64,000 nucleotides of DNA, from positions 8,124,634-8,188,633 of the forward strand of contig CP154954.1 of the NCBI GenBank assembly GCA_039621445.1, read 5' to 3'. This DNA is from Euglena gracilis. Its lineage: Eukaryota. Below, one piece after another: positions 404-58,100 of the stretch. The position numbers were made by a program, and so were the translations under genes. Below the pieces are notes generated by a model. That model was not told the origin of the DNA. It searched no databases and saw only the letters and a list, made by a program, of their open reading frames with translations. The first letter of the stretch is position 1. Every line of letters starts with the position of its first letter.

Positions 404-636
404 GTATGAGGTAAACAAAAACTGTAAGAACGGAAAGGGTGAAAAAAAATCACGAGTCCCGCGCAGAGTGTCCACGCGGGCTCAACGAAAAGAGGGGTAG
501 CTACATCCTGGGGGGGGGGGGGGGGTAGTAGGGGTCGACCATGGTCCACCCACGGTCGCCCTCGGTCGCCCTCGGTCGCCCTCGGTCGTGGGGGTCGACC
601 GAGGCCAGGCCGTATTCGGTCGTGGGGGTCGACCGA

Positions 637-1075: not shown

Positions 1076-1080
1076 AAGAC

Positions 1081-13000: not shown

Positions 13001-16000
13001 TTGCCCCCCAAATCAGTTGGGCAACAAAAGGGATTTGCCCCCCAAATCAGTTGGGCAACAGAAGGGATTTTGTTATTTTGGGGCCCTCGAACAGTTGGGC
13101 AGCAAAAGGGATTTGCCCCCCAAAACGGGTGGGTAACACAAGGGATTTTGTTATTTTGGGGCCCTCGAACAATTGGGCAACAAAAGGGATTTGCCCCCCA
13201 AATCAATTGGGCAACAAAAGGGATTTGCCCCCCAAAACGGGTGGGTAACACAAGGGATTTTGTTATTTTGGGGCCCTCGAACAGTTCGGCAGCAAAAGGG
13301 ATTTGCCCCCCAAAACGGGTGGGTAACACAAGGGATTCTGTTATTTTGGGGCCCTCGAACAGTTGGGTAGCAAAAGGGATTTGCCCCCCCAAAACGGGTG
13401 GGTAACACAAGGGATTTTGTTATTTTGGGGCCCTCGAACAGTTGGGCAACAAAAGGGATTTGCCCCCCAAAACGGGTGGGTAACACAAGGGATTTTGTTA
13501 TTTTGGGGCCCTCGAACAGTTGGGCAGCAAAAGGGATTTGCCCCCCAAAACGGGTGGGTAACACAAGGGATTTTGTTATTTTGGGGCCCTGGAACAGTTG
13601 GGCAACAAAAGGGATTTGCCCCCCAAAACGGGTGGGTAACACAAGGGATTTTGTTATTTTGGGGCCCTCGAACAGTTGGGCAGCAAAAGGGATTTGCCCC
13701 CCAAAACGGGTGGGTAACACAAGGGATTTTGTTATTTTTGGGCCCTGGAACAGTTGGGCAACAAAAGGGATTTGCCCCCCAAAACGGGTGGGTAACACAA
13801 GGGATTTTGTTATTTTGGGGCCCTGGAACAGCAGCAAAAGGGATTTGCCCCCCAAAACGGGTGGGTAACACAAGGGATTTTGTTATTTTGGGGCCCTCGC
13901 ACAGTTGGGCAACAAAAGGGATTTGCCTTCCAAATCAGTTGGGCAACAAAAGGGATTTGCCCGCCAAAACGGGTGGGTAACACAAGGGATTTTGTTATTT
14001 TGGGGCCCTCGAACAGTTGGGCAACAAAAGGGATTTGCCCCCCAAATCAGTTGGGCAACAAAAGGGATTTGCCCCCCAAATCAGTTGGGCAACAGAAGGG
14101 ATTTTGCTATTTTGGGGCCCTCGAACAGTTGGGCAGCAAAAGGGATTTGCCCCCCAAAACGGGTGGGTAACACAAGGGAGTTTGTTAATTTGGGGGCCCC
14201 GAACAGTTGGGCAACAAAAGGGATTTGCCCCCCAAAACGGGTGGGTAACACAAGGGATTTTGTTATTTTGGGGCCCTCGAACAATTGGGCAACAAAAGGG
14301 ATTTGCCCCCCAAATCAATTGGGCAACAAAAGGGATTTGCCCCCCAAAACGGGTGGGTAACACAAGGGATTTTGTTATTTTGGGGCCCTCGAACAGTTCG
14401 GCAGCAAAAGGGATTTGCCCCCCAAAACGGGTGGGTAACACAAGGGATTTTGTTATTTTGGGGCCCTCGAACAGTTGGGCAGCAAAAGGGATTTGCCCCC
14501 CCAAAACGGGTGGGTAACACAAGGGATTTTGTTATTTTGGGGCCCTCGAACAGTTGGGCAACAAAAGGGATTTGCCCCCCAAATCAGTTGGGCAACAAAA
14601 GGGATTTGCGTGGGTAACACAAGGGATTTTGTTATTTTGGGGCCCTGGAACAGTTGGGCAACAAAAGGGATTTGCCCCCCAAAACGGGTGGGTAACACAA
14701 GGGATTTTGTTATTTTGGGGCCCTCGAACAGTTGGGCAGCAAAAGGGATTTGCCCCCCAAAACGGGTGGGTAACACAAGGGATTTTGTTATTTTTGGGCC
14801 CTGGAACAGTTGGGCAACAAAAGGGATTTGCCCCCCAAAACGGGTGGGTAACACAAGGGATTTTGTTATTTTGGGGCCCTGGAACAGCAGCAAAAGGGAT
14901 TTGCCCCCCAAAACGGGTGGGTAACACAAGGGATTTTGTTATTTTGGGGCCCTCGCACAGTTGGGCAACAAAAGGGATTTGCCCTCCAAATCAGTTGGGC
15001 AACAAAAGGGATTTGCCCGCCAAAACGGGTGGGTAACACAAGGGATTTTGTTATTTTGGGGCCCTCGAACAGTTGGGCAACAAAAGGGATTTGCCCCCCA
15101 AATCAGTTGGGCAACAAAAGGGATTTGCCCCCCAAATCAGTTGGGCAACAGAAGGGATTTTGCTATTTTGGGGCCCTCGAACAGTTGGGCAGCAAAAGGG
15201 ATTTGCCCCCCAAAACGGGTGGGTAACACAAGGGATTTTGTTATTTTGGGGCCCTCGAACAATTGGGCAACAAAAGGGATTTGCCCCCCAAAACGGGTGG
15301 GTAACACAAGGGATTTTGTTATTTTGGGGCCCTCGAACAATTGGGCAACAAAAGGGATTTGCCCCCCAAATCAATTGGGCAACAAAAGGGATTTGCCCCC
15401 CAAAACGGGTGGGTAACACAAGGGATTTTGTTATTTTGGGGCCCTCGAACAGTTCGGCAGCAAAAGGGATTTGCCCCCCAAAACGGGTGGGTAACACAAG
15501 GGATTTTGTTATTTTGGGGCCCTCGAACAGTTGGGCAGCAAAAGGGATTTGCCCCCCCAAAACGGGTGGGTAACACAAGGGATTTTGTTATTTTGGGGCC
15601 CTCGAACAGTTGGGCAACAAAAGGGATTTGCCCCCCAAATCAGTTGGGCAACAAAAGGGATTTGCGTGGGTAACACAAGGGATTTTGTTATTTTGGGGCC
15701 CTGGAACAGTTGGGCAGCAAAAGGGATTTGCCCCCCAAAACGGGTGGGTAACACAAGGGATTTTGTTATTTTGGGGCCCTCGAACAGTTGGGCAACAAAA
15801 GGGATTTGCCCCCCAAATCAGTTGGGCAACAAAAGGGATTTGCCCGCCAAAACGGGTGGGTAACACAAGGGATTTTGTTATTTTGGGGCCCTCGAACAGT
15901 TGGGCAACAAAAGGGATTTGCCCCCCAAATCAGTTGGGCAACAAAAGGGATTTGCCCCCCAAATCAGTTGGGCAACAGAAGGGATTTTGTTATTTTGGGG

Positions 16001-18668
16001 CCCTCGAACAGTTGGGCAGCAAAAGGGATTTGCCCCCCAAAACGGGTGGGTAACACAAGGGATTTTGTTATTTTGGGGCCCTCGAACAATTGGGCAACAA
16101 AAGGGATTTGCCCCCCAAATCAATTGGGCAACAAAAGGGATTTGCCCCCCAAAACGGGTGGGTAACACAAGGGATTTTGTTATTTTGGGGCCCTCGAACA
16201 GTTCGGCAGCAAAAGGGATTTGCCCCCCAAAACGGGTGGGTAACACAAGGGATTTTGTTATTTTGGGGCCCTCGAACAGTTGGGCAGCAAAAGGGATTTG
16301 CCCCCCAAAACGGGTGGGTAACACAAGGGATTTTGTTATTTTGGGGCCCTCGAACAGTTGGGCAACAAAAGGGATTTGCCCCCCAAAACGGGTGGGTAAC
16401 ACAAGGGATTTTGTTATTTTGGGGCCCTGGAACAGTTGGGCAGCAAAAGGGATTTGCCCCCCAAAACGGGTGGGTAACACAAGGGATTTTGTTATTTTGG
16501 GGCCCTGGAACAGTTGGGCAACAAAAGGGATTTGCCCCCCAAAACGGGTGGGTAACACAAGGGATTTTGTTATTTTGGGGCCCTCGAACAGTTGGGCAGC
16601 AAAAGGGATTTGCCCCCCAAAACGGGTGGGTAACACAAGGGATTTTGTTATTTTGGGGCCCTGGAACAGTTGGGCAACAAAAGGGATTTGCCCCCCAAAA
16701 CGGGTGGGTAACACAAGGGATTTTGTTATTTTGGGGCCCTGGAACAGCAGCAAAAGGGATTTGCCCCCCAAAACGGGTGGGTAACACAAGGGATTTTGTT
16801 ATTTTGGGGCCCTCGCACAGTTGGGCAACAAAAGGGATTTGCCCTCCAAATCAGTTGGGCAACAAAAGGGATTTGCCCGCCAAAACGGGTGGGTAACACA
16901 AGGGATTTTGTTATTTTGGGGCCCTCGAACAGTTGGGCAACAAAAGGGATTTGCCCCCCAAATCAGTTGGGCAACAAAAGGGATTTGCCCCCCAAATCAG
17001 TTGGGCAACAGAAGGGATTTTGCTATTTTGGGGCCCTCGAACAGTTGGGCAGCAAAAGGGATTTGCCCCCCAAAACGGGTGGGTAACACAAGGGATTTTG
17101 TTATTTTGGGGCCCTCGAACAATTGGGCAGCAAAAGGGATTTGCCCCCCCAAAACGGGTGGGTAACACAAGGGATTTTGTTATTTTGGGGCCCTCGAACA
17201 ATTGGGCAACAAAAGGGATTTGCCCCCCAAATCAGTTGGGCAACAAAAGGGATTTGCGTGGGTAACACAAGGGATTTTGTTATTTTGGGGCCCTGGAACA
17301 GTTGGGCAGCAAAAGGGACTTGCCCCCCAAAACGGGCGGGTAACACAAGGGATTTTGTTATTTTGGGGCCCTCGAACAGCTGGGCAACAAAAGGGATTTG
17401 CCCCCCAAATCAGTTGGGCAACAAAAGGGATTTGCCCCCCAAAACGGGTGGGTAACACAAGGGATTTTGTTATTTTGGGGCCCTGGAACAGTTGGGCAAC
17501 AAAAGGGATTTGCCCCCCAAAACGGGTGGGTAACACAAGGGGATTTTGTTATTTTAGGGCCCTCGAACAGTTGGGCAGCAAAAGGGATTTGCCCCCCAAA
17601 ACGGGTGGGTAACACAAGGGATTTTGTTATTTTGGGGCCCTGGAACAGTTGGGCAACAAAAGGGATTTGCCCCCCAAATCAATTGGGCAACAAAGGGGAT
17701 TTTCCCCCCAAAACGGGTGGGTAACACAAGGGGATTTTGTTATTTTGGGGCCCTCGAACAGTTGGGCAGCAAAAGGGATTTGCCCCCCAAAACGGGTGGG
17801 TAACACAAGGGATTTTGTTATTTTGGGGCCCTGGAACAGTTGGGCAACAAAAGGGATTTGCCCCCCAAACCAGTTGGGCAACAAAAGGGATTTGCCCCCC
17901 AAAACGGGTGGGTAACACAAGGGATTTTGTTATTTTGGGGCCCTCGAACAGTTGGGCAGCAAAAGGGATTTGCCCCCCAAAACGGGTGGGTAACACAAGG
18001 GATTTTGTTATTTTGGGGCCCTCGAACAGTTGGGCAACAAAAGGGATTTGCCCCCCAAATCAGTTGGGCAACAAAAGGGATTTGCGTGGGTAACACAAGG
18101 GATTTTGTTATTTTGGGGCCCTGGAACAGTTGGGCAGCAAAAGGGATTTGCCCCCCAAAACGGGTGGGTAACACAAGGGATTTTGTTATTTTGGGGCCCT
18201 CGAACAGTTGGGCAACAAAAGGGATTTGCCCCCCAAATCAGTTGGGCAACAAAAGGGATTTGCCCCCCAAAACGGGTGGGTAACACAAGGGATTTTGTTA
18301 TTTTGGGGCCCTCGAACAGTTGGGCAGCAAAAGGGATTTGCCCCCCAAAACGGGTGGGTAACACAAGGGATTTTGTTATTTTGGGGCCCTGGAACAGTTG
18401 GGCAACAAAAGGGATTTGCCCCCCAAATCAGTTGGGCAACAAAAGGGATTTGCCCCCCAAAACGGGTGGGTAACACAAGGGATTTTGTTATTTTGGGGCC
18501 CTGGAACAGTTGGGCAGCAAAAGGGATTTGCCCCCCAAAACGGGTGGGTAACACAAGGGATTTTGTTATTTTGGGGCCCTCGAACAGTTGGGCAACAAAA
18601 GAGATTTGCCCCCCAAATCAGTTGGGCAACAAAAGGGATTTGCCCCCCAAAACGGGTGGGTAACTCAA
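1081..18668 (+). repeat. Satellite array, 78-bp monomer with interspersed 34-bp subunit, ~17.6 kb
   Basis: Monomer aaaacgggtgggtaacacaagggattttgttattttggggccctcgaacagttgggcagcaaaagggatttgcccccc (78 bp); subunit aaatcagttgggcaacaaaagggatttgcccccc (34 bp); highly homogeneous, with recurring diagnostic variants. Confidence 0.98.
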
Positions 18669-18709
18669 GGGTGGGGGTCGACCATGGTCGCCCCCCGACC
18701 AGAGGGGGC

Positions 18710-18823
18710 AGGCATTGGATATAAAGCGTTTAAAACAGAAACAGTTGCCCTTTTGATTAAAACAGTGATATTTTTCAGGGCATAGTTTTAAACACTTCGC
18801 GATTCGCGAAAATGGAGATGCCT
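18710..18823 (+). repeat. Dispersed ~115-bp repeat, copy 1 (copy 2 at 22651-22766)
   Basis: caggcattg(g/a)atataaagcgtttaaaacagaaaca...gttttaaacacttcgcgattc...gatgccta occurs twice; short AGGCAT/ATGCCT inverted ends. Confidence 0.85.
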
Positions 18824-18879
18824 AATATATCCTTGTACGCTTCAGGTCCACCATGCCCAGAGTCGGAAGACCACATTTG

Positions 18880-19264
18880 AGGGGGGGGGTTTCCCGTCGT
18901 GGGGTGGGGGTCGACCATGGTCGCCCTTCAAAAGGGGGGGGTTTCCCGTCGTGGGGTGGGGGTCGACCGTGGTCGCCCTTCAAAAGGGGGGGGGTTCCCG
19001 TCGTGGGGAGGGGGTCGACCATGGTCGCCCCCCTACCGGGGGGGGGTTCCCGTCGTGGGGTGGGGGTCGACCATGGTCGCCCCCCTACCGGGGGGGGTTT
19101 CCCGTCGTGGGGTGGGGGTCGACCATGGTCGCCCTCGGTCGACCCCCAGGGTCGCCTCGGTCGACCCCCCCCACTCCCCCCCCCCCCCCCGACCGAGAGC
19201 GACCGAGGGCGACCGAGGCGACCGTGGGTCGACCATGGTCGACCCCCACTACCCCCCCCCCAGG
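18880..19264 (-). repeat. Right arm of the foldback element (inverted ~52-bp subrepeats plus terminus)
   Basis: About 5 copies of cccgtcgtggggtgggggtcgaccatggtcgccc, the reverse complement of the left-arm unit. Confidence 0.9.
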
Positions 19265-25329: not shown

Positions 25330-27140
25330 ATATACGGTGCCAAATGTCTTGGGCCAAGTGTTGCCTTGCCCAGCCTGTTTGTCGCCTAGTGCTTGCTTCA
25401 CCAGCCGGCCAAGTAGCCCTGAGCCCAGGGGCCCATACCTGACCATGGGTGGAATGACAATGGACTGAACAGCCATCCAGCCGACTCGCATATTGGCTGG
25501 TTTTTGGTGATCTTCTTGTGTTCTGCCATGGCCATGTTCTTCACTGCTAGGTCTTCTTCCCAAGGACAACCCTTTTCGGAGCGGGTGAAAGACGACAAGG
25601 TCCACCGCCAAGGGCCCCGCAGGATCAACTCCATCAAGTGCCACATCGGCTGGGCGCTTCTTTCCACCGACGACCACCTCTGTCCTTGGAGATCAGGCAG
25701 TAGACTTTGGTCATTTTGACCCCCCCTCCCCCCCCCCTATGGTGAAGTTCACCGTTTGAAAGTTCACCGGGGGGTCCCGGACCCCCTCCCCCCCCCCTCT
25801 GCCTAACCCATCGGTGAACTTCACCGGTGAAGTTCACCAAGAGAGCACTTTTTTGGCCAAAAATGACCAAAAATGGGATTTTAGGCAAGTTTTCGGAAAT
25901 TTCGATAAAATTCCATGAAGCATCATCCTCAAAATGACCATTTTGAGAGGAAAGGAGCAAAATTTCACCCATGAAAATTTCACCCCCAACCATCAAAACG
26001 GTGAAGTTCACCGGTGAAGTTCACCGGTGAACTTCACCGCCGAAAGTACCCCCCCCCCTCCCCCCCGGTGAATGTTCACCGGTGAACTTCACCGGGGGGG
26101 GTCCACAGCCCCCCCCCCACCCCTGCCTAACCTCCCTTGTGTGGACACCATTCTCCCGGAGGACCATTGCTAGCGCATCTCGTACTGCATTGTGGCGCAA
26201 GACGAGTTTTTTTTTTGCAGCACAGCAAATGGTCCCCGAAGGGATCCAGGGAATCACCACACATGGGGCATGGGGCTCCGGATGCCCACGGAGAGATCTT
26301 GGCTCCAAGCCACCACCGTAGCAGCAGGCGGTACTTTGTTGCTTGTATGCGCGTCCCCATTCCTTTGTTTGGGACCGTCTGCACCCAGGCTGTGGTGTGC
26401 GGCATGGATTGCAGGCGCAGCCGGCACTTGTCCCGGAGTGGGAGGACCTTCTTCAGGGCATCTTTTCGTGCTAGATGGACCTTATCTGACCACCAACGCT
26501 GACTTCTGTGGTCATCCTCGACGTTCACCGGTTGCTTCCTCTCTGCCCACTCTGGCAGTGGAGAGAACTGTGCGCCCAAGGTGCATTGCAACTCCTTTGT
26601 GACCTCGATGAAATCCGATGGCGTTGTGCATACTTGGGATGGGAATTGGAGCAGTTGGAACTGTTTTAGTGCACACAAAATGCCTGCCATCCGTGCTGGT
26701 GCTTGGAGGACGGTGGGGACCTTGATTCCCAGCCCTGCCATGCGGAGTGGCAAGCTGCATTGGGCCCACCGGGATTCACTTGTCGATGGCTGGCCGATGG
26801 TGTCGTCCCATGCTCTGCGGATGACCCGATTTGTGCTTGAAGGGGGCCCTGCAAGGCGTCCGACCGCAAAGCGCGAAGGAAATGCATGACCTTGCAAGCA
26901 TCCAGACAGTACCGGAGCAAAATGTGCTGGCACTATGGGTCGCCCAGGTTGCTCAAGACGTGGCACGATTCTTCAAGTTTGTCCACTACTGCTTGCATCT
27001 CCTTCTGGCGAAACGTCGTCGTGGTTGGGTGCTCCACCGGAAAGCCGAGGACTCGCAAGCCTTGCCCGGGCTTCCATGGGACACGGGGAATGGAGCCGAG
27101 GACTTGATGGGCCACCAATGTTTGGTCCAACTGGGCTGGG
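25330..27140 (-). mobile_element. Degraded, 5'-truncated non-LTR retrotransposon with restriction-like endonuclease (CRE-clade-like)
   Basis: Frameshifted peptides GLRVLGFPV and WAQCSLPLRMAGLGI (end of RT/thumb), AWVQTVP, CPMC-x8-H-x3-C knuckle, RHNAVRDAL, RPADVAL...AVDL and EHKKITK: the usual zinc-knuckle plus PD-D/E-xK RLE order. Confidence 0.85.
25681..26129. mobile_element. MITE-like insertion splitting the RLE domain
   Basis: Flanked by a 5-bp duplication acctc (25676-25680, 26130-26134); removing it rejoins ...GVHTREV/VVGGKKRPAD; internal ggtgaagttcacc near-palindromic repeats. Confidence 0.75.
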
Positions 27141-30828: not shown

Positions 30829-30936
30829 TAAAAACGTTTTCAGAGCCCGCCAAATGCCTGCCCTGAAATTCGTGGTCATGATTCACGCAAGGGGTCAAAA
30901 ACGGCAATTTGTGAAATTTGGACCCAAAAAACGGCG

Positions 30937-31081
30937 CCCTCACTGAAAACGTGCCTGAACCCGGATGCCCTCACTGAAAACGTGTCATTGACCCGAATGC
31001 CCTCACTGAAAACGTGCCTGAACCCGGATGCCTTCACTGAAAACGTGTCATTGACCCGAATGCCCTCACTGAAAACGTGTC
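30937..31081 (+). repeat. Alternating 31-bp tandem units with core CTGAAAACGTG (also 32588-32735 and, diverged, 33495-33650)
   Basis: ccctcactgaaaacgtgcctgaacccggatg alternates with ccctcactgaaaacgtgtcattgacccgaatg. Confidence 0.9.
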
Positions 31082-31130
31082 ACCCCCCCCCTTTTTTTCT
31101 TTTCTTCTTTTTTTCCGCAGCCCTGCCAAT

Positions 31131-31466
31131 ATGGCCAAACGCACGGCAAACTTTGTGAATGGTCTTTTGCCACCTCCCCCTAGGACGGAACTGTTCCTGG
31201 CTGCTCTCGCGGTATACCAGCAAGATGCCAAGAAGCCGAAGGTTGACCCCCTTCATGGCACCTTGCTGGCACAGGGCAACACAAAGAAAAAGTCCGGCTC
31301 CGTGGGTGCAGAGCTTGCTGCTGTTGCCAACTGTTTGGAGTTCGCCAAACTGTGTCAACATCGGCAAGCGTCTTATCCTGAGCTGGATGATTTCTTTGTT
31401 GCCTGGACGGGATGGGAGCTGGAACCCAGCCTGTTGTTCGATGAGGCGAGCGTCATCCAACCATGA
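31131..31466 (+). CDS. Orphan element-borne protein (possibly frameshifted at the C-terminus)
   Basis: MAKRTANFVNGLLPPPPRTELFLAALAVYQQDAKKPKVDPLHG...; three homologous copies in the window, with conservative substitutions between two of them; basic NLS-like patches. Confidence 0.5.
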   Translation: MAKRTANFVNGLLPPPPRTELFLAALAVYQQDAKKPKVDPLHGTLLAQGNTKKKSGSVGAELAAVANCLEFAKLCQHRQASYPELDDFFVAWTGWELEPSLLFDEASVIQP

Positions 31467-31805
31467 GTACGGAGTACCCCTGTCAAAGCCGCCACCATTC
31501 TTTCCCGGGGGACAAAAGTCCGAACCAAAGGGTGAGGTTGCCGACAGTGCCGGTGGTGAGACCAAACACGAAGGGAAACCGTTGCGGCGTGTGCTTTTCT
31601 CTCGCACATCGGCTAAACGGCGGCGCACGACGTGTGTTATACGTTTCAATTTTCCGTTCTTATCCCTGTTAATGAACTCTCAGGGCGCCTTTGAAGCAGG
31701 ACGCAAATGAGCAACTCTCAACTCCCGACGTGAAGAAAGAGGCTGAATCCATCGGGTACTAAACTCATGTTTTTTCACTGTTCCTCTGTCATGCACCACT
31801 GACTG

Positions 31806-32396
31806 ATGACCGAGGAGGAGTTCTTTGCACCGCATGTGCCCGAACACACGCCATTTACCAGGTATTTACAAAGAAAACCACTCAAATTTTACGGTCACCA
31901 CTTCCACAGTGAGCACATGATCGCCATCAACGTTGACGAAGACTACGTCGACCTCACCCAACCATCGGCCGCCTGCCCGCCGTCCGTCACCCTGAAAACC
32001 GAGGAGGACGACGACGGCGCAGCTACGGCGCGGAACGTTGCACGGTGGTCAACTTGGGCAAATTTTTGCGCCCCACCAAGTGACGAACACGCGGTCGAAA
32101 ATCAGGACCTGACCAGTGTTCCGTCTGTCTTTCCCACCGCCGAGCAACGTTCCGCTCCTGCGGTCAGCTCTGTCTCCTCTGACCAACCCCCTGTGCCTCG
32201 TGCCGTGTCCCGACTGCCTATAAAACAGGAGAAATGTGGTTTTTGTGGTGTTGCCATTCCGAAAAATCCAAATTGTGTGGAGCTGAACAAAGTTGTCTGT
32301 GACGCCTGCGGTTTGGCATATCATTTTCATTGCCAAGATTTGCGGCGGCCACCAAAGTATGGCTCTTTTCTGTGCAAAGCCTGTCGTGTGCCGTGA
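31806..32396 (+). CDS. PHD-finger protein
   Basis: C-terminal CGFC-x-CDAC-x4-H-x2-C-x-FLCKAC (C4HC3); probable 48-nt in-frame GT-AG intron at 31862-31909; decayed upstream exon from ~31707. Confidence 0.75.
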   Translation: MTEEEFFAPHVPEHTPFTRYLQRKPLKFYGHHFHSEHMIAINVDEDYVDLTQPSAACPPSVTLKTEEDDDGAATARNVARWSTWANFCAPPSDEHAVENQDLTSVPSVFPTAEQRSAPAVSSVSSDQPPVPRAVSRLPIKQEKCGFCGVAIPKNPNCVELNKVVCDACGLAYHFHCQDLRRPPKYGSFLCKACRVP

Positions 32397-32789
32397 GTTT
32401 CGCCCCTTCCCTGCCGTCCGTTCTGCCGTCGTCTGTTCTGCCAAGGCAAACTAGCCTTCTCGTTGTCATCCTTCGTGTTGTAGAGTGCCACCCGAACCGC
32501 CTCACCCGTTGAGGACCACACGGCCTCTCAACCGCACACCGATTTTTCATGATTGCGATTTTCGTTTTTTGCGGGGGGTTGACACAGATGCCCTCACTGA
32601 AAACGTGCCTGAACCCGGATGCCCTCACTGAAAACGTGTCATTGACCCGAATGCCCTCACTGAAAACGTGCCTGAACCCGGATGCCTTCACTGAAAACGT
32701 GTCATTGACACAAATGCCCTCATTGAAAACGTGTTCATGACCACGAATTTCAGGGCAGGCATTTGGCGGGCTGAACACGTTTTTAACAA

Positions 32790-33700
32790 CTGTGTTCAGA
32801 AACGCCAGTTCGGGCGTGAAGCCGTGTTCCAGAACGCCGGTTCGGGCAGAAGAAGAAGCCGAAGGTTGACCCCCTTCATGGCACCTTGCTGGCACAGGGC
32901 AACACAAAGAAAAAGTCCGGCTCCGTAGGTGCAGAGCTTGCTGCTGTGCAGAGCTTGCTGCTGTTGCCAGCCGTTTGGAGTTCGCCAAACTGTGTCAACA
33001 TCGACAAGCCTCTTATCCTGAGCTGGATGCTTTCTTTGTTGCCTGGACGGGATGGGCCCAGCCTGTTGTTCGATGAGGCGAGTGTCAATCGAACAATGTG
33101 TGGCTCAACGTGAGCAGCAGTCGGGAACTTTGTTCATTTCAGGGAACCGTTCCCGACTGCCTATAAAACAGGAGAAATGTGGTTTTTGTGCTGTTGCCAT
33201 TCCCAAAAATCCAAATTGTGTGGAGCTGAACAAAGTTGTCTGTGACGCCTGCGGTCTGGCATATCATTTTCATTGCCAAGATTTGCGGCGGCCACCAAAG
33301 TATGGCTCTTTTTTGTGTAAAGCATGTCGTGTGCCGTGATGTCCGCCACTCCCTGTCGTTGTGCTCCAAGGCAATCTAGCCTTCTGTCGTGTTGTAGAGT
33401 GCCCCCGACCCGCCTCACCCGTTGAGGACCACTCTCAACCGCACGCCGATTTTTCATGACAGCGATTTTTGCTTCTTGCTCGAGGTTGCCACAGATGCCC
33501 TAATGGAAAACGTGCCTGAACACAGATGCCTTAATGGAAAACGTGTCATTGCCACAGATGCCTTAATGGAAAACGTAAAACGTGCCTGAACACAGATGCC
33601 TTAATGGAAAACGTGTCATTGCCGCAAATGCCCTCATTGAAAATGTGTTCATGACCACGAATTTCAGGGCAGGCATTTGGCGGGCTGAACACGTTTTTAA
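32790..33700 (+). pseudogene. Internally deleted tandem copy of the orphan-ORF/PHD cassette
   Basis: Left-flank motif cagaacgccggttcgggc fused to the middle of the orphan ORF (32850-33085), PHD finger copy (33150-33339), tandem array, and right inverted repeat ending at TTAA 33697-33700. Confidence 0.8.
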
Positions 33701-33810: not shown

Positions 33811-35376
33811 GGATGCAAGTCTCCAGCCCTCCCGCAGAAGGACGGCCCGGGGACTGGAAATGTCCACAATGTGCAAACCACAACTATGCATCGAGGATTG
33901 TGTGCAATCGGTGTCACGGCCCGCGGCAGGTGGAAGGGGACACAACTGCACAGCCTGTGCGGGGCAACGGCACCTCTCGGCCCAGTCCTGGGGACTGGTA
34001 TTGCCCCAACCCAGCTTGCTGCAACCTGAACTACGCCTCACGACCACCCCATTGCTTAGAATTATATTTTTTTTCATCGGTGAATCTTTTTCCAGATTTT
34101 TTTTTTGCAGGCTGTGAAAAAATTTTGTGATTTACAGGTCAGTCAGAGGGGTGCAGTCCCCCCTGTGACCCCACCGTGACCCACAATGGGACCTTGGCAA
34201 TTCAAGGAAAAATGCCCCAAATGACTTATTTCACAGTTTTTTTGGTCCCCCCCCAAAGAAAGCCATTTCTCCCCCTGACCCCCCCCTCCAGTTCCCCGCT
34301 CCCCAGAGAGATGTGGAATGCCGCCCAAAGCCCGCGGTACGTGAAAAAAATTCTTCCTGCAAGTTGTTGGGATATTTTGTTTCTGAACTTTGTTAGATTG
34401 AAGCTCCTGGGCAAGCAGTGGCTTATGGTCCCGACTCGTGTGCAACCGCTGCAAGACACCCCCAGCGAGTGCAGCATTATACCTACAGCAGGCTGCTGTG
34501 ATGTGGTGTGGGATTCCCTTTAAATTCCCTTTTCTGCACTGCTTTCGTGTAGGGGATTGGGTGTTCAGCTCCCAATGCTCCAAGGCTCCCGTCCCGGTGA
34601 CTGGCTGTGCATGACGTGCCAGAACCACAACTATGCCAGCAGGACAGTGTGCAATCGGTGCCAAGCAGCCAAACCGGAAGTGGCAGACAGGCATTTTTTT
34701 ATGATGGCACCTTGAGGGGCTGAACTCCCCTGGACTGTGTACATCTGATCTGCAGTTGCCTGCACTGGTTGAATGACGCTTCCTGTGGCAGAACAATTTT
34801 ATTTTTTGCTTCCACCCCAGTGTTAGCGAAAGAAATACAAAAAGAAATGTTCTCGAAATTTCAAAAATGTGTCTGGAGTTTCTCTGGTTGGTTCACACTG
34901 TTCTCTTTTGCTTTGCATTTTATTTAGCATTCACAATAGAAATTTCCCCAACCTACCCTCTACCCTGACCCTACCCTACCCTGCTGGGTTTGATGAATTG
35001 TGGGTGAAGCAGGATCATCATTTATGAAACAAAAGGCCTGGTTGCAGCTCCTCTGTCATCTCTTGGGATGGCAGTGCCCGGCTTAGGGACAGAAGCCAAG
35101 CCGGCAGCCCCGAGTTTTCGGGCAGGCGACTGGATGTGCCCACAGTGTGGGGATCGCACCGTTGCTTTGAGTGTGACCCCTCCTTTTTGGCCCGGGGGGG
35201 GGGGTGCAGAGACAACCTGTAGGGGTTTGCAGATGGCCCGGCTATGCTCAAATCCCCCCCACGGGTCAGAAAATCCCCCCAAGCACTGGTGTTGTGGCAA
35301 CCACAACTACGCCAGCCGCAAGAAGTGTAACCGGTGTAACCAGCCAAAAACAACACCGGAGAGCTCAGAGGCATAG
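33811..35376 (+). CDS. RanBP2-type zinc-finger protein (four fingers; likely RNA-binding), 3' exons
   Basis: Exons ~33811-34041, 34433-34497, 34569-34684, 35046-35148, 35296-35376 give four (P/A)GDWxCxxCxNxNYASRxxCNRC fingers ending in TAG at 35374-35376. The start codon is not defined. Confidence 0.85.
34042..34432 (+). other. Non-conventional intron
   Basis: No GT-AG; 5' gacca...ccattgctt pairs with 3' aagcagtgg...tggtc; removal restores YASR/LVCNRC. Confidence 0.8.
34685..35045 (+). other. Non-conventional intron (CAG +4, CTG -8)
   Basis: agaCAGgcattttttt...aaaaggcCTGgttgc; removal restores the frame KPEVA/APLSS. Confidence 0.8.
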
Positions 35377-41726: not shown

Positions 41727-42202
41727 CATACATCTCTCTAAGGTTTTGCGAACCCCCCGGGGGGGGGGGGGCGGCTGCAGCCAGCCCCGATTTGGGCCCA
41801 GCCCAGCCGCAGCAGCACCCCCCCCCTGGGGGGGGTGCTGCTAGCCCAGCTAGCCAGCCCCTTTTTTGGGGGTCCAGCCCAAAATTTTTCGGCGCGAAGC
41901 GCCGAAATTTTTTGAAAAACTGTGTTTAAAAGTGGCCAAAAATGGGGTTTGGGGGGCGTTTGGGGCATTTTTGGGGGGTTTCAGATGCATCACTTTTTTC
42001 AAAACTGTGTTCTGCAGGTCATTTTTGGGCATTTTTCCGATTTCAGTCCAGCTCGCCCCGGTTCGGGACCAGCCGGGACCCAGCCCCCCCCCCCCCCCCC
42101 CGGGGGGGGGCGGGCTAGCCAGCCCAAATTTCTAGCCAGCCCAAATTTCTAGCCCTAGCCCCGCCCCCCCCCCCCCCCCCGGGGTCCTTAAAGAGATGTA
42201 TG
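41727..42202. mobile_element. hAT-like MITE with perfect 8-bp TSD (copy 1)
   Basis: gtcaatga|catacatctctctaagg...ccttaaagagatgtatg|gtcaatga; second copy at 54615-55137. Confidence 0.9.
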
Positions 42203-47846: not shown

Positions 47847-49178
47847 ATGGGAAGGCAACTGGTCTGGGAGGAGCCTGGTCACCTGGATCATAGATCATTT
47901 AACGCCGTGTGACCCCCGGGGGGGGTTCGCGTGTGTGGGCAGGGCGTAGCTTAAGAAAATTTGACCCTCTGGGGGGTCCAGCCAGCCAGCAGCCTTTTTC
48001 CAGCCCGGGACCCCCTCCCTTTCCCCCCCTCAACGAGATTTATTTCCAAGCACCCTTCGGTGGCTGGACGGCAACAGATTTTTCGCTTTTGTGGGTCAAA
48101 AATGGACAACAAATGGGTCAAAAATGGGCGAAGATGGGTCAGATTTGGCTGTCCAGGACATTTTTGGGGTCAAAAAGTCGATTTTTTTATAGCTGGCAGT
48201 TTTTAGGACATTTTTTTTTTCATTTTCGATTTTTTTAGTTCCTGGTTCGACCCCTGGTCGGGCCCAGTTCCAGCCCAGGGGGGAGGGGGGTCAGCCAGCT
48301 GCCTTTTTCCAGCCAGCCCAGATTTTCCAGCCTCTGAGGTGGACCCCCCATAAAAAAGCACCCTGGTTGGAGGCCTCTGGACCCCCCCCCCCCAGGGGGG
48401 TGCGCCATGGGTCAAATTTGGCCGATTTTTTTTTCAGCGTTTTTGGCTGATTTAGGCTGGATTTCGGACCTCCCCTAAGGATTTCCCTCAGTCCTAAGGG
48501 ACACTAAATCAATTTTTTTTTGCCGATACAATGTCCCATGCTTTTCGCTCCGGGTGGACCACTTTCGGTTTGTTACCAATGGGGTTCGGCCAAAACGCAT
48601 TGATTTCTTGAGCTATTTCATCCTGAGAGACCAAAGTGACCCCTCCGCCCCGTGGAGGAGGAAGCTGGGTTTTGAAAAGTGACGTTTTTTTTTGAAAGGG
48701 AAATTAACCCCCCCGCTTCCCCCCGGTAAGCAATGCTTTGCAGAGGGTGCCTCCTCCACATGTGGTTCTCCATACTACATGGCCCGGGGGATTTGCAAGG
48801 AGGGATGAGCACCGGGAACTCCATCAAACAAAATCCCAGGTTTCCTCAGCCCCAATGCACACACCTCTCAGAACTGATCATGTCCCCCAGCACACCCAGC
48901 AACAAGGTTGCCTCTGGCATATTTTGAAGATGGTGCCAAAGGAAATCAGTGTTACGAATTGAATGAGTGGAATCTCGGCTGGGTGCTCTCTCTGGTGGAA
49001 AGTCCTTGGGGGGAGGAGCTGTGTGGCATTGTTGAAGCTGTGGCCAGGCTTCACGGGGAACAGAATGAAGGGGCTGAAAAGCAGGCACAAAAATGGATGG
49101 CAGCATCCTGCACAAGGGTTCTTTGCGGACATTTCGGATTGTGCATTGAGGTTGCCATTTTTTTTGGCCCCTGAAGCA

Positions 49179-52100
49179 ACCTTAGGAAGCGACGCTGCCC
49201 CTGCCAATGAAGATGAACGCCGGCTGGCCCAGCTGGGGTACAAGCAGGAGTACACCCGCATCTTCAACACATGGACCAACTTCGGGCTCACCACCAGCAT
49301 GGTCAGCGTTCTGCTGGGCATCGTGCCCTTGTACACTTATTCGCTCCAGACTGGAGGTGTGTCCTCTCTTCCATCGCTCTCAAGCCCCCCCCCCCCCAAC
49401 GTGCCCAACAAACACCTTGTTCGGGCCCCAGCTGTTGTCAGGTGCGTTGCTGGGTGAGGATGGGGCTGTGGGGGTGAAAGCCACTGCCTCTTGGGCTGGT
49501 GCACTCATTTAGCACCTGTGTGAACCCCTCCCCAAGGGGGGTTTCAAGAATGGGTGGGTGGGTTGGGGCTGCTGGACCCCCCCCCCCCTCCCTGGGGGGC
49601 ACCATGGGTCACATTTTGGCCCGGCCGAAGGCCAGGCCAGAGAATTTTTTCAAGGCCCATTTTCCGGCCGATTTTGGCTTGGTATTGGGTGGGTGGGTGG
49701 TTGACCCCCACTGGGGGGGGGGGGCATGCGGGTTTGGACCCATGGAAGAATGGAAACCCCCCGGTCATTAAGCGAATCTGGCTGGAACCCAAAGCGAGCG
49801 AACCTTTCAGCGCGAATAATTGGAAGGGAGCTGAATAATGGATCAATTTTCAGCCCTTTTTTTTGCAAAATCCCCCCAGGTGATTGGATCCGGTTTAGTG
49901 ATCGGCTGCAGGTGAGGGGGGGTGGAAAAAAAAACGAAAGACGTTGAGTGCATATTTGGCAGTTGTTTTTTTTTTTTTATGCTTCTTTTTTGATTTTAGC
50001 GTATTTTAAAAAAACAAAAAAAAAAACGCCTATGAGGTTTTGCATGGAAAATTTTGTGAATGCATATTTTCAATCATTTTTGGCATCTTCTGGGATCTTT
50101 TCTGCCAAAATTTTCTTTCCACTAAAATGAAAAAGGCAATTTTTTTTGCCTTTTTGGATGTTCATTCAAAGTTTGGTTTGCTGAGGTTTGATGTTTCTTC
50201 ACAACGAGTTTTTTCACAACGAGTTTTTTCAAATGAGATTTCCTTTTTTTATTTCCTTTTTTTGTTTTTTTTTGGCGTTTTTTTTCAAAAGAAATACGGT
50301 GTTTTTTTAAAAACATGGTTTTTCTCAAAAAGAATTTGCAAAGTCCCAAGCATGATTGAGTGTTAATGACTGACTGGTTTTCTGGTGAAAAAAAGTGAGT
50401 GGCTGGTGTTTGAAGAGTGGACGTAGCCCCGCTCCCCCTGGGAGTTGGTAAATAATTGTATGACCCTGAAAGGGTTTCCTTATTTCTGAACTGGCAGGTA
50501 TTTTGGCAATTAACCGGGGCATTTTCACAAGGTACTTTGGGCAGTTTTAAATTTGCCCGAGATGGGGTCTGTCTGGTCGGTCGGTCTGGTGCGTTGGATT
50601 GAAGTACCTGCCCAGACACTCGAGGGCACTCTGAGACCGCCCCTCGGTGCAGAAGGGATGGGAAGCTTTTTTTTCGTCTTAAGGACCACCCTTTGAGGAC
50701 CGCCCTTGGGCCCAAGGGATGGCCAATGGCGAATCCGGGGATCGAACGGAGGCAAAAATCAAAAATAATTCAAAAGGTCGAAAAACGCGTTTTTTGCCGT
50801 TTTGGATGGATGGGCGATGGTTCAAGGATGCCCCTTCATTGCCAAAATACGGCTATTTTTTCGTCCATTTTTTTCACTGTGCTGGGACGGGAAGTTCTTT
50901 TTTTTTTTCAAGGACTGCCCTGCCCCCCCCCCTCTTGGTTCCCGGACTTGCCCCCATTGGCACAATTGCACAAATCGTTTTTTTTTTTTGAAGATTGCCA
51001 CATCCCAAAATCCGAACAATATCATTATGACTGGCGCCCAAGTCAAGCAGTCATTCCCCAAGCATTCCGGGCACAGGCCATGCGTGTGTGTTCCGGGACT
51101 ACCCAGCAACGACCATCAAACGGAAAGTTGCAGGAAAGATTCTGAGAAGGAGACCGAGCTGTGCGAGTCATGGCCAGTCCCCCCCCCCCAGGACCCCCCC
51201 ACATCCCTCCCCCCCAGGACCCCTCCCCCCCAGGACCCCCCCAGGCCCCCCCCCCAGGACCCACCCGGGGGCGGTACCCACAGGACCCACTGACTGTGGA
51301 GTTCCGGGCGCCTTCGGCGCCTGCTACCGGGGGGGGGGGCTACCGCCCCCCCCCGGACCCCCCCCTGTCTTCAAAATAGCCTCACCTTGTGGTGCAAAAT
51401 TTTTGCCAAGTGTTGCGGGACCCCCCAGGACCCCCAGGACAGGGTACTGCGGGGGGAAACTGACCATAAGTGAGCTGTGCACCATGCTGCCCATTTTGAA
51501 ACTCGTTGGACCTGGGCTGATTTTGGTCAACCCCAGCACCATTTCATTTTTTGCTCATTTCATTTTTTGCTCAGATGTTTTTTTTAAAAAAATCAAAAAA
51601 TATAAATAGCACATTTTATTGGAGAATCTGAACCAATTGAACCCGAAACAGTATTAAAAAGAGAGAGGGTTCATGTGATATTCAACCCGGTTTGGAATTG
51701 CACAAATTGCAGTTTTGGAAGGTTTTTTTTGAATTTTTAAAGATCTGCCCAAATGTGTCCCCCAAGTCTTTTGGCCCCCAATTTCACATCCCAGAGTGTA
51801 TTACGGAAGTTGGCTGATTTTTGGACAGAATGCTTCCTGGCTCAAGTACACTCAGCCACCTGGTGTTGCCCCCTCACCTTGTGGTGCTCTTTCCCAACAG
51901 GACCGGCCGTGATGCTCTGGAGTTGGGTCGTGATCGGTGTAATGGCCAAATCATTGCTTGGCTCCGCCACTGTGCTCACACTCACAAACAACAGTTGATG
52001 CCCAGAAATGTGAGGGAGTCATTTTGGGCTGTTTATCCCAATCACTGTAGATCGCAACACACATTTGATTGTGGAAATGACTTTGACTTCGAAGAATTCG

Positions 52101-55100
52101 CATTTTCACCGCCTTTTTAAAAAAAAGATTTTGTCCATTTTTGCTTGTTTGTTTTATGTGTTCAATCAGTTGACATTTTCGAAATCAGCAGTTTCCAACA
52201 CGTGTAAGTTGAAATGGATGGATTTTTGTCCATCCTAGAATTCAAGTTTTAATTGATTGATTGATTAATTTTAAGGTTTGTTTGTTGGTGGTTTTTTTGT
52301 TTGCAGAACACACATTTTTTGAAGGAAGATTACCCATCACCTCGCGGGGGGGGGGGGGGGGTTGTGGGCAGGTTTGAAGGGAGGGCATTTTTTCCCCTCG
52401 AGGGATGGGTGATAATTTTTATAAACCAGGCTGATTTTTGGCCATTCATAGTCTTTCTCACGTCACAAATGTATCCAATGAATCTTGTTTTTCATTTGCT
52501 TTGTGCACGATTCACAAATTCCAGGGGGGTTATACAATTGGGATCCCCCAAAAACGTACCAAAACGAAGTCGAAAACTCAAATGATTAATTCGGGGCAGG
52601 CTGGATCAGGCTTGATTTAATAAATTTTTACAGTGCTGTGGGGTGGCTGCTGGCCCCCCCGCGGCGGGGGGTGGCTGATTTGAGTTCCGTGTCGAGGCAA
52701 TCCAGGCAAATTTCTTTTGCCCCCCCCCCCATGTCCAACGACCAGTAATCCCACCACTGGGGGGGGGGTTGTTAGACACGGGGTCCAAGAAAATGCATAT
52801 AGGTTGGTGAAACCTCCGAAAAGGTGTCCTCGACAGGGGGGGGGTCGTTAGACATGGGGGGGGCAGGTCGTGGACGTGGGGGTAATGACCATTTTCGGGA
52901 AACGCATTTTTGACCCCAGCTCACACAAGGTCGTTGTGGTATTTTCCGCCAACTCCGCCACAACAAGCAATGGCATGGCCAGGACACTGTTCGTGGTTTC
53001 CTCACTGGCTGAGATCTGCGCTGCGTATCCCACAACCAGGGTATCATGGGGATCTGGAACAACCTTCAGGATGGAGGAGGGCTCGACCCCTCCGTGGTGG
53101 GTGGGGGGCCGCCCTCTGCTCGCAAAGTGTAATGTTCCTGCATTCCATTGCTTTCAGTGCTGGTGATCAGAAATGGATGGATTTCAAGGAACAAGTGACT
53201 GGCTGATTCAGGCATTTGCTTAAGGGATTGCAGTACCCCCCCCCCCCCCCCGGGGGGGCTGGACTGCAGCTAGTCCAAATTTGGCTAGTGGGTTTTCTAG
53301 CAGACCCCCCCCCCCGGGGGGGTCTGCTAGCAGGGCTAGCTAGTGGAAAAATTTTTTCCAGTAACCGGCGCGAAGCGCCGAAAATTTTTTTTGGGACCCC
53401 CAAATATGGCCAAAAATGCCCGTTTTTGGCCATTTTTGGAAATTTTTGGAACAAAATCAGCCAAAAACCTATTAAAAACCTCATTTTTCCTCCGGCGCGT
53501 AGCGCCGGAGGAAAATTTTTTTCCAGTCCGGGGGAGGGGGGGGTCTAGCTAGTCCACTTTTTCCAGTGTCTAGCCGATTGGCTAGCCAGTCCCCCCCCCC
53601 CCCCCCGGGGGTCCTTAAGCAAAAGCCTGGGCTGATTCTTTTGAACGTGGGCGGTGCCCGTCGTAAAGGTTTGGTCCCCCCCCCCCAACCTTGCCATGCA
53701 GCCCTGCCCGCAATGGGAGCACTGTATTTCTGGGCTTACCGCTTAGGCGGCCCCGAGTGGGGTCCAGGATATTTTTTTTTGCTTTGATTGCACGCTGGTG
53801 TATCCCGGTATCCGCGCACGCTGTTATATCCAACCATTTTGATGCACAAATTACGCACAAGCAAGGCCTACCACCCGCCCACCCTTCCACACACACACCA
53901 CCCACACCCACGGCACATGCATGTTCACACACCCGTTTTCTTTCCACATCTCTTCATAAGTGATCATGAGTTCCAGCCTTTTTTTTTAGTTTTTGGATTG
54001 AATCCTTTTTTTTTGAGAAAACAATCCTGTTGTGCCCCTTCTCCGCTTGGACCGCCGGATGGTGTAATTTGCTAGGGCAGATTGGGGGTGTCGCCAGTGG
54101 CGGCTATTCCGGCGCTGTGGTCATCGGCGAAATTGTGCAAATCACAACCGGCATTGCAATGAATCCAGCCCAGACTTTGGGGATTTACGCCGCACCCAAG
54201 CCTCTTTTTTTAAAAAAAATATTCGTTTTTATTGCATTCAAAGTGTAGCATTATTTATGCCCCAAAATTTTCAGTACACTGAAAACAAGGCCCAATTAAT
54301 TGCTAAACAAATTAACCCCCTCAATAAGTGCACAATGGCTTTATAAGTGCGCACCCCCAAGGGTCCGAAACCACCTCCCTAACAAGTGCGCACCCCCCCC
54401 CCCAAAGGAGAAATTACTGCCACATCTCAGGTCAGAAAGCACACACAATTCTCAGAATTGTCCTTCTCAGATCAAACATTTCTACCGCCCAAGCCGAAAT
54501 TGGAAACACAATCACTCTTAGGTGGCCGGATTCGCATTTAAGCTTTTTTGTGTTGGTTTGCGCATTTCCGCAAATTACCAAACTTTTTTATTTCGGCTGT
54601 GTGGCTCTGGGGGGCATACATCTCTCTAAGGTTTTGCGAACCCCCCCCCGGGGGGGGGCGGCTGCAGCCAGCCCCGATTTGGGCCCAGCCCAGCCGCAGT
54701 CAGGGATGGGATTTTTTTTTTAAGTTAAGGACCGCCCCTTAAGGACCGCAGCACCCCCCCCCAGGGGGGGGGGGCGGTGCTGCTAGCCCAGCTAGCCAGC
54801 CCCTTTTTGGGGGGTCCAGCCCAAAATTTTTCGGCGCAAAGCGCCGAAATTTTTTGAAAAACTGTGTTCAAAAGTGGCCAAAAATGGGGTTTGGGGGGCG
54901 TTTGGGGCATTTTTGGGGGGTTTCAGATGCATCATTTTTTCAAAACTGTGTTTTGCAGGTCATTTTGGGGCATTTTTCTGATTTCAGTCCAGCTCGCCCC
55001 GGTTCGGGTCCAGCCGGGGTCCAGCCCCCCCCCCCCGGGGGGGGGGGGGGCGGGCTAGCCAGCCCAAATTTCTAGCCAGCCCAAATTTCTAGCCCTAGCC

Positions 55101-58100
55101 CAGCAACCGCCCCCCGGGGTCCTTAAAGAGATGTATGCTGGGGGTCTGAAAACACAGAACAAGAGAGTGCAAAAAATGAACGAAATTCTGTTTTTGGCGG
55201 TGTGACCCCTGGGACTTTGGTGAGAAATGGTGTTTTTGGGCGTCCAGAAATGGGCTCCGCACGTCGAAACCCGCGGGACCCCCCCCCATGGGAGTGAAAA
55301 AAACGCAAAACAGCAACACAGGAATGGGACCTTTACTGATGTTGTTGTTCCTATCCAGGCAAGGACAGGACCAAGGACAGCCACCAGAGCCCACCGGATC
55401 CCACCGGATCTGCAGATTCGGTGACCATTGGTACAGATTTGGTAAGATCTGGTAACAAAACCAGATGATTTGGGCCAAAAACACCTGAAAATGACCAAAT
55501 TCACTCAGAATGCTTGTTCATTGCAATTTTATAATCGATGGGCGCTTTTGCAGATGTTTTTCTCTCATTCAGTCATTTTTGGTTGTGCCTGATTCTTGCC
55601 ACGTGGTGCGATGCACGCGGTGCTGGCAGGGATTTTTTTTTCGGCGCCGACAAGTATATCCCAACCCCCCCCCCCCTCTGGGGGGATCCCCCCTGGGGGG
55701 CTCGGCCAGACCCACCCACCCTCCCCCCCCCTCCCCCCGGATTCCAAGTTTTAAAAACCCCCTGGGTGCCGCACGCGGTGTGAAACACGCGGTGCGGAAG
55801 CCACCCACCCACCCCCTGGGGGGGGGTCAGGGGACCCTTGTCTCGTAATGATTGAATATTTGTGTGCGAAAGGACATTGTGCAAGTGGTTAACGATTGTA
55901 TCACCTTGCTACTGAGCTAAAATGCAATAAACCAATAAAAAAACAACAGACAAGCAAAAAATCCAGACGAAAGCAAGGCATTTGAAATCCAGTAAAGTGT
56001 TGGAAGAATTACAGAAAATTTCTGCAGGAGGCAATATGCAATGGTCCGTTTGACAATTTTACGAAGCCAGAGGTTCGATGCGTCGCTTTCAGGCCAACGT
56101 TTGTCTAGGGAAGATATTTCCTCAAAGTTGTTCTTCTCTTTCCGAAGAGACATCATCCACTTCCCATCCACCATTTGATCAATGATGCGCATTAATGGTT
56201 TCAACTTGGGAGAAGGGCATGTCTCCGCAATGCTTTTTTTTTTTGAACCCCCAAGGCTCCTGCCACAAACGCCGGCACAGAATTGAAAATCTTGTGGTGT
56301 GAGCAGCCCCCACTCCCCACCCCCTCCCCATTCCTTGTTTTTCCCACGGTGCCGATTGTTAGGTGAAGGTGTTCTTTCGATGCCGAAGAATTCCCCCCCC
56401 CCCATGAGGTGGATCGGGGGAGTGTCCCCCACTTCCTGGTGGGTGTGGGTTGAACCCACAGCCATGCCAACGTTGGTTGACCCGTCCACCCTCTTGGTGA
56501 CAGTGCTCATTGAAACGGGTGGGGACGCTAGTGCAGGGGGGGGGGAATGCAACTTGCATAATTTGCATTTTTTTTTGCATAATCAGGTTTTCCCGAAATT
56601 TGCATTTTTTTTTTGCATTTTTTTGCATTTTTTTTGCAAAAAATATTTTGCCCTGGAAATTTTTTTGTAGTTGGTTGCCGTATGTTTGGATTTTTTGCAT
56701 TTTTTTTGCATTTTTTACATAAAATATTTTGCCCTTGAAAAAAATTTTGTAGTTGGTTGGCATATGTTTGGATTTTTTTGCATTTTTTGTGTTTTTTTTG
56801 CATAAAATATTTTGCCCTGGAAATTTTTTTTGATTTTAGGCAGCAAAGCTCTGTCATATTCCAGCTTTTTCTCAAGGTTTTCATGCAAGTTGCATTTTTT
56901 TGCATTTTTTTGCATTTTTTTGCATTTGCATTTTTTTGACTTGCATAATTTGAAGGGCCAAGTTGCATTCCCCCCCCCCCCTGGCTAGTGGGAGGGGAAT
57001 ACCCTCTTATCTCAATTGGATGGGGAACCGGCGGGGAAAGGAGTTGCTTGGCGCGGACCCTTGTGGTGGCTGGGGTGGTCAACACCCTCTCCGACACGAT
57101 GCTCACGGGCAGGCAGCTTTTTCGCCAGAGGTAGGTGGGCCACAGGACCAAAGGTTCATAGGTTCATTCAACACCTGTGGTGACCCTCCGGGGGGGATGG
57201 GTAGGTTTTTGAGATTGGGTGGGTGGGTTGGGACCGCTGGACCCCCCCCCCCCCCAGGGGAAGGGGTGTCCTGTGCCATGGGTCAGATTTTGGCCCGGCC
57301 AAAGACCAGGCCCAACAAATTTTCGGGGGCTTTTCAACCGATTTTGGCTGGATTTTGGGTGGGTGGGTCAATGGTTGACCCCCCCCCCCTGGGGGGTTGT
57401 GGGTGGGGGGTTTTTGAAAACAGTGGGTGGGCGGGTTTGGGCCCAGGGTCCCTCGCGGGGGGGGGTCACCAAATGAATCCATGAATCTGACCCTCCAGAT
57501 TCAATGACACCATTGGGCAAAAATTGCCTGTGTGCAGGACTGTGCTACATCTCGGTGGTGTGGCACCTCGTGGGCTGCATCTTGATCATTGCGCTCATGA
57601 ACTGCTATGCTCCGACCCACAAGTCGGTGTCGTATGTGTTGACAGAGTACAACAATTCTACTGGTTTCACACCCAAGCAGCAACTTCATTGGCTCCAAAA
57701 CCGGCCTTTGCTTGAGAACTCCATTGGGGTCCACTCCAAGGGGGTCCATTGTCTGATATGTGATTTGCTTTGCATTTTGAAGGTTTTTTGTTGCAATGTC
57801 ACAAGCACAAGCAACACGCACCTTGGAAATCAAATGTGGGAAATGGGTTCAATGTCAAAATGCATTCCCAAATCCCAAATTGCGAATTACATATGAAATT
57901 GATGAGCTTGGTCATAGGTGGACATTTCAGAATTCTCTTCACATACTGGAGTCATACTCATGTTATTCTCACAAAATATTGATTTGTTTTCTATTAAAGT
58001 TATCCGAACAGGTTTTGTCACCAGACACAATTTTTTTGAAGTGTTTCTGCTTGTGTCCATCAAATATTTATGTTGGGCTTATTGGCTTGCTTGCTGCCTC

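Follow-up and report, generated by a model that had tools for sequence, protein, structure and literature searches.

How introns that lack GT-AG signals are removed in Euglena, and how they arose, are open questions, and the short direct repeats found at their junctions are among the few clues to their origin. A zinc-finger gene in a 64,000-nucleotide stretch of nuclear DNA of the eukaryote Euglena gracilis, hereafter the window, raises this problem in a concrete form, as two of its introns are bounded by paired 8-mers that resemble each other. An earlier note had interpreted these 8-mers as remnants of target-site duplications, placed immediately outside the paired stem of each intron, and had pointed to the same pattern in a permease gene of the window. 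We ask here whether the resemblance is real, whether it belongs to the individual intron or to a consensus shared by all of them, and which kind of event may have produced it.

Exon 1 of the zinc-finger gene matches a transcript-derived protein of 205 aa (EG_transcript_18157 from eukprot, here P0001) at 99%. With a spliced aligner of protein to DNA, which demanded exact codon matches and permitted split codons, P0001 was placed on 33813-35373 in five exons separated by introns of 391, 47, 361 and 147 nt (introns 1-4). The spliced model and P0001 have the same residue at 204 of 205 positions, the sole difference being S55A at residue 55, and four stretches of the product match PF00641 (Pfam, E=1e-33). 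As the transcript-derived protein is independent evidence, it fixes the lengths of the introns and hence the register in which the 8-mers are compared. This register is certain; the exact cut point inside each repeat is placed according to the published consensus. A metagenome scan with P0001 gave 12 loci, with no E. gracilis transcript or orthologous locus among them; for nine the match extends over most of the protein (29-41% identity), and for three it is limited to a short segment (50-61%).

Features of the zinc-finger gene and of the permease gene, with positions in the window
Feature	Position	Strand	Remarks
Zinc-finger gene, CDS	33813-35376	+	ATG to TAG; 205-aa product with four RanBP2-type zinc fingers; five exons
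Zinc-finger gene, exons	33813-34041, 34433-34505, 34553-34684, 35046-35150, 35298-35376	+	spliced alignment of P0001 to DNA, junctions placed by consensus
Intron 1, nonconventional	34042-34432	+	391 nt; starts ga, ends cc; C before and G after both cuts
Intron 1 repeat, 5' copy	34037-34044	+	ctcacgac; 5 exon nt and 3-nt spacer
Intron 1 repeat, 3' copy	34428-34435	+	gtcccgac; 5-nt spacer and 3 exon nt
Intron 1 terminal helix, 5' arm	34045-34057	+	CA followed by CCATTGCTT; pairs with 34413-34427
Intron 1 terminal helix, 3' arm	34413-34427	+	AAGCAGTGG ... TG; from folds of the intron ends
Intron 2, conventional GT-AG	34506-34552	+	47 nt; from the spliced alignment
Intron 3, nonconventional	34685-35045	+	361 nt; starts ag, ends gc; C before and A after both cuts
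Intron 3 repeat, 5' copy	34680-34687	+	gtggcaga; 6/8 against 35041-35048
Intron 3 repeat, 3' copy	35041-35048	+	gttgcagc; 6/8 against 34680-34687
Intron 3 closing helix, 5' arm	34688-34692	+	CAGGC; pairs with 35036-35040, interrupted pairing continues inward
Intron 3 closing helix, 3' arm	35036-35040	+	GCCTG; CAGGC:GCCUG in MFE and centroid folds
Intron 4 zone	35146-35297	+	147-nt intron; TGTGG repeated without mismatch at its two junctions (35146-35150, 35293-35297)
Amino-acid permease gene	48880-63388	+	P0008, EG_transcript_5049; PF13520 and PF00324; at least 13 exons, introns of 63-2862 nt

Upstream of the zinc-finger gene, the region 30936-33643 holds a PHD-finger gene (31806-32393) that matches P0013 at 99% in a single exon, and so adds no introns to the sample, together with a partial second copy at 33022-33336. 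Tandem repeats of 32, 63 and 70 bp precede both PHD-finger copies and the zinc-finger gene (30936-31082, 32579-32740 and 33507-33643). Farther upstream, the region 636-19136 contains about 17.5 kb of satellite DNA (1129-18671), whose units (78, 112 and 190 bp) are composed of a 34-bp core. On either side of it lies an array of a 52-bp repeat (636-1080 on the one side, 18882-19136 on the other), the two running in opposite orientations. An open frame of 281 aa on the minus strand (26130-26972) lies in a G+C-rich stretch and ends in a Cys/His-rich motif, with no Pfam match at E<=0.01.

The nonconventional introns of euglenids are a recognised class, for which terminal pairing and spacer rules have been published. 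Paired bases at +4..+6 and -8..-6, usually CAG/CTG, and a pyrimidine before and purine after each cut were described by Milanowski et al. 2016 (PMC4770533), and a consensus for E. gracilis (CCAGG at +3..+7, CCTG at -9..-6) was given in BMC Genomics 2024 (PMC11170887). By means of knock-ins, Nomura et al. 2025 (PMC12501133) defined the signature N3-CDG...CH'G-N5-6|R, which according to the authors covers 61.2% of the nonconventional introns of E. agilis. In their experiments no change in length of the 3-nt donor spacer was tolerated, a variant with a 3' spacer longer by one (+1) was still spliced at reduced efficiency, and fully synthetic introns of 50 bp that followed the signature rules were spliced precisely, so that junction repeats are not among the requirements listed. 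Excision is described in a review (PMC11282704) as proceeding by a non-spliceosomal route, after removal of the conventional introns, and as releasing circular RNA.

Introns 1 and 3 of the zinc-finger gene both have borders other than GT/GC-AG, and no GT/GC-AG pair occurs anywhere in their slide range. At every cut of the two introns a pyrimidine is followed by a purine, and the terminal helices of both are also found in duplex folds of the intron ends. Their removal from the mRNA is supported at the level of the protein, where the joined exons agree with P0001 (204/205). Intron 3 conforms fully to the published code, with CAG at +4..+6 (34688-34690) paired with CTG at -8..-6 (35038-35040) in the MFE and centroid folds, spacers aga and gttgc, and a purine (a) as the first base of the next exon. 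Intron 1 shows the pairing only in a weaker form, CA at +4,+5 (34045-34046) with TG at -7,-6 (34426-34427), as its third pair is a C/A mismatch (CAC/ATG, not CAG/CTG). Its spacers are gac and gtccc, with the junctions as in the earlier note, and the next exon begins with g; cgac, present in both copies, leaves the junction free to slide. Two helices of intron 1, GACCA:UGGUC and CCAUUGCUU:AAGCAGUGG, are present in both the MFE and the centroid folds, and the outer one (GACCA:TGGTC in the DNA) overlaps 3 nt of each repeat copy. Intron 4 is atypical, being without CAG/CTG at the canonical distances, and its strongest helices (GGGGAT:ATCCCC and CAGTGT:GCACTG) lie elsewhere.

The 8-mers of both introns, their coordinates and their 6/8 matches are exactly as the earlier note had given them. 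The description that they stand before and after the paired stem holds if the stem is counted from CA:TG, but not for the outer helix of intron 1, which reaches into the repeats. The splice site had also been said to lie at the same position in both copies, after five bases and before three. With the junctions placed as above this is correct, yet it is no additional coincidence: as the 3-nt and 5-nt spacers add up to 8, the 8-mers before CAG and after CTG are automatically in register and cut between the fifth and sixth base in both, so that the observation restates the published spacers and the register. Of the 14 nonconventional introns in the window, nine have spacers that total 8, two a total of 7 and one a total of 9, the other two being atypical.

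A wider sample was provided by the permease gene, which was located by a hydrophobicity scan, long open reading frames alone having not revealed it. The sample comprises 16 introns from two genes: the four of the zinc-finger gene, 11 within permease residues 1-344 and one between permease residues 421 and 422. Two of the 16 are GT-AG introns. Permease residues 345-405 were left out as they are not colinear with the DNA, and residues beyond 431 were not placed. The non-colinear segment has a frameshift-like appearance, suggestive of errors in the assembly, of a difference between strains or of damage to this copy; an alignment of it with low penalties was discarded for its spurious micro-exons. 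Permease intron 6 contains an 83-bp tandem repeat (56608-56830) and one member (54615-55137) of an interspersed repeat of about 530 bp, the other member of which (41727-42202, 84% identity) lies 12 kb upstream.

Two comparisons of the 8-mers were made. In the first, the highest in-register 8-mer identity was taken from the 12 nt to either side of the junction. The mean identity of the 16 cognate pairs was 4.88, whereas the 240 non-cognate pairs had a mean of 3.62 and the 896 shifted pairs one of 3.55. Permutation of the acceptor labels (20,000 rounds) gave P=5e-5, and P=1e-4 for the 14 nonconventional introns alone. An identity of at least 6/8 was reached in 6 of 16 introns but in only 5.8% of the non-cognate and 4.0% of the shifted controls, and of the 25 relative shifts compared, shift 0 alone is conspicuous (5.0 vs 2.5-4.43). 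The comparison with shuffled exon-intron pairs that had been proposed in the earlier note thus came out in favour of the cognate pairs over the 16 introns taken together, with P about 1e-4 against both non-cognate and out-of-register partners, and its assertion that the pattern recurs in the permease was borne out by introns 4, 9 and the last, which reach 6/8 in register. A more liberal null, in which each non-cognate pair was allowed its best shift out of nine, equals the cognate value at one shift (5.08) and was rejected as unfair, since it sets nine tries against one.

In the second comparison, the 8-mers were anchored on the terminal helix, at the C of CA(G) and the G of (C)TG, the anchors being hand-picked by the analyst from the fold and alignment results. 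An automatic search for the outermost helix was dropped after it chose chance 4-bp helices in exons. Twelve typical introns were used, the remaining 4 of 16 being the two conventional ones and two atypical ones (zinc-finger intron 4 and permease intron 1). Their mean identity was 4.17/8, against 2.55 for 132 non-cognate pairs (P=8e-5), and 6/8 was reached by 4 of 12 cognate pairs and by none of the 132 non-cognate pairs. The likeness is restricted to the 8 columns that adjoin CA(G) and (C)TG, with 50/96 matches there and 36/144 in the 12 flanking columns, six to each side (P=3e-5). The repeats vary from 2/8 to 6/8 between introns and none is perfect. With column match rates taken from the non-cognate pairs, the probability of at least 6/8 is 0.014 for one pre-specified 8-mer pair and 2e-4 for both pairs of the zinc-finger gene. 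As non-cognate pairs have the same positional consensus, the bias towards a pyrimidine and a purine at the junction is controlled for, and the signal survives. The likeness of the two 8-mers is specific to each intron and does not come about through a shared motif.

These repeats are real, and they are already known. Reports of short direct repeats at the junctions of Euglena introns go back to the 1990s (cited in PMC12621601), 84.4% of introns in E. agilis are "slidable" (PMC12501133), and the ends of about 72% of the nonconventional introns of E. gracilis are undeterminable (PMC11170887, Table 1), against 44% that we compute for equal base use. Readings of the repeats as TSD-like and of the introns as MITE-like have likewise been in print in 2014, 2016, 2024 and 2025. 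The window therefore adds nothing new in kind. It contributes a small independent sample in which an intron-specific repeat signal survives a control for the junction consensus and coincides exactly with the 8 bases that the 3-nt and 5-nt spacers, as defined by experiment, mark out. Within the literature searched we found no paper that connects the confinement to 8 columns with the 3+5 spacers or assigns a transposon superfamily, none that gives an 8-bp duplication length for euglenid nonconventional introns, and none on the combination of Euglena, hAT, target site duplication and intron.

We favour an interpretation in which introns 1 and 3 are ordinary nonconventional introns that go back to the insertion of helix-ended DNA at a staggered break, about 8 bp of the target being duplicated in the process, and consider this the probable course of events. 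The excision machinery would measure its cuts from the terminal helix, CA(G) lying 3 bases inside the intron and (C)TG 5 bases before the exon. Removal of the element plus 8 bases would then restore the reading frame, and under the 3+5 rule only an insertion with an 8-bp staggered duplication would be removed without a change of frame. One of the two copies would have partly decayed since the insertion. The inserted DNA itself may have been a MITE-like transposon or filler from the repair of a break. As the repeats are each intron's own, recognition of a shared motif does not explain them. An insertion scar is a plausible reading. To this extent the interpretation as target-site-duplication remnants is supported, the cognate likeness exceeding that of shuffled and of shifted pairs, although the step from there to a mobile element is not supported, as the zinc-finger introns are single-copy in the window and the repeats range in quality down to 2/8. 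Repair of staggered breaks, which Milanowski et al. 2016 put forward, would be expected to leave just such repeats, and the duplication reading is itself not new (PMC11282704).

The strictest version of the earlier note would make the introns a family of DNA transposons, MITE-like and possibly hAT-like, with CAG...CTG ends and 8-bp duplications, and we regard this as unlikely. hAT elements are known for 8-bp duplications and CAG-type ends. The confinement of the likeness to the 8 columns abutting the ends may speak for such a family, as may imperfect terminal inverted repeats beginning with CAGG, which intron 3 has and which are present in 7 of the 12 introns of the typical kind. A MITE-like origin was proposed by Milanowski et al. 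2014 (PMC3935182), earlier than the break repair put forward by the same group, and also in PMC4770533, PMC11282704 and PMC12501133. The ends of the introns align as inverted repeats that are imperfect and gapped, over about 16-25 nt; the same pairing is needed for splicing and by itself does not indicate a transposon. CAG/CTG and the spacers are likewise required for splicing and would be selected whatever the origin. The introns are alike only in a few terminal bases, their lengths range from 63 to 2862 nt and their interiors are unrelated. A blastn comparison of the 16 introns with the 64-kb window found no other copy of zinc-finger introns 1, 3 or 4, only chance-like matches of 23-25 nt, and what recurs within the window is limited to internal pieces of the long permease introns. 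The 64 kb, a tiny sample of the genome and far too little to decide on transposon families, showed no transposase gene.

A different possibility, which we hold to be rather unlikely, is that the repeats are maintained by selection and not relics of an insertion. Cuts that are off by one or a few bases, or the use of either copy, would yield the same or a synonymous mRNA, and introns with borders coding for identical residues would be tolerated and maintained. Four introns, numbers 1 and 3 of the zinc-finger gene and numbers 1 and 9 of the permease, have repeat copies that would be translated identically. Since such copies are synonymous, the protein alignment joins equally well at either one, and the protein does not fix the RNA cut site inside the repeat. 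In the six best repeats the mismatches favour codon position 3 (9/17 columns, against 3/31 at positions 1 and 2, P=0.0017), a comparison that was made post hoc and on six introns, and that takes in the pairs 34037-34044/34428-34435, 34680-34687/35041-35048 and 58164-58171/60776-60783, among others. An intronic copy left to decay freely would be expected to differ at every position, and the bias for the third position could reflect either small numbers or a constrained copy. The reduced but persisting splicing of the +1 spacer knock-in indicates some slack on the 3' side (PMC12501133). Against selection stand permease introns 4 and the last, which carry first-position, amino-acid-changing mismatches within their repeats, and the precise splicing reported for synthetic introns in PMC12501133. 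The corresponding statement about the intronic copy, that it is no passive scar but is kept by selection in frame with the exonic copy, excision using either copy or having slack, appears to us quite unlikely. If it were true, the 8-base frame (3+5) would play two parts, as the trace of an insertion with an 8-bp stagger and as a margin of tolerance for machinery that cuts RNA imprecisely.

That both 6/8 matches arose by chance, or as a by-product of the junction consensus (pyrimidine before and purine after the cut, C at exon +3), is extremely unlikely: the consensus does contribute a little, non-cognate identity rising to 0.45 (last column) and 0.36 (purine column), but it brought none of the 132 non-cognate pairs to the level reached by a third of the cognate ones, and the per-intron probability of 0.014 and the permutation values of 5e-5 to 1e-4 speak against it.

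Insertion of helix-ended DNA at a staggered break, the interpretation that we prefer, can be set against several systems for which junction repeats have been described. Nothing essential separates introns 1 and 3 from the euglenid nonconventional introns at large, with which they share non-GT-AG ends, a CA(G)/(C)TG end helix, cuts between pyrimidine and purine and "slidable" repeats, although intron 1 with its CAC/ATG falls outside the strict form of N3-CDG...CH'G-N5-6|R. The closest single case is intron 4 of gapC in E. agilis ACOI 323, a nonconventional intron that is strain-specific, was recently gained and has a direct repeat of eight nucleotides at its junctions, for which break repair was proposed (PMC4770533). 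Its repeat is longer than the others of that study, while those of the zinc-finger introns match at 6/8. In the Mobile DNA 2024 review (PMC11282704) CAG/CTG is termed TIR and the repeats are called "TSD-like sequences". The review also treats the introners of Micromonas, Amoebophrya, Polarella and others, whose TIR and TSDs at or near the junctions resemble the paired ends and junction repeats of the zinc-finger introns and whose removal likewise restores the frame. Introners differ in forming recognisable multi-copy families and in being cut mostly by the spliceosome, whereas the zinc-finger introns have no family in the window and are probably removed by other machinery. Finally, the introns of Daphnia pulex that are attributed to break repair (cited in PMC4770533) show that short direct repeats at both junctions need no transposon, but those introns are conventional spliceosomal ones with no required terminal helix, unlike introns 1 and 3 of the zinc-finger gene.
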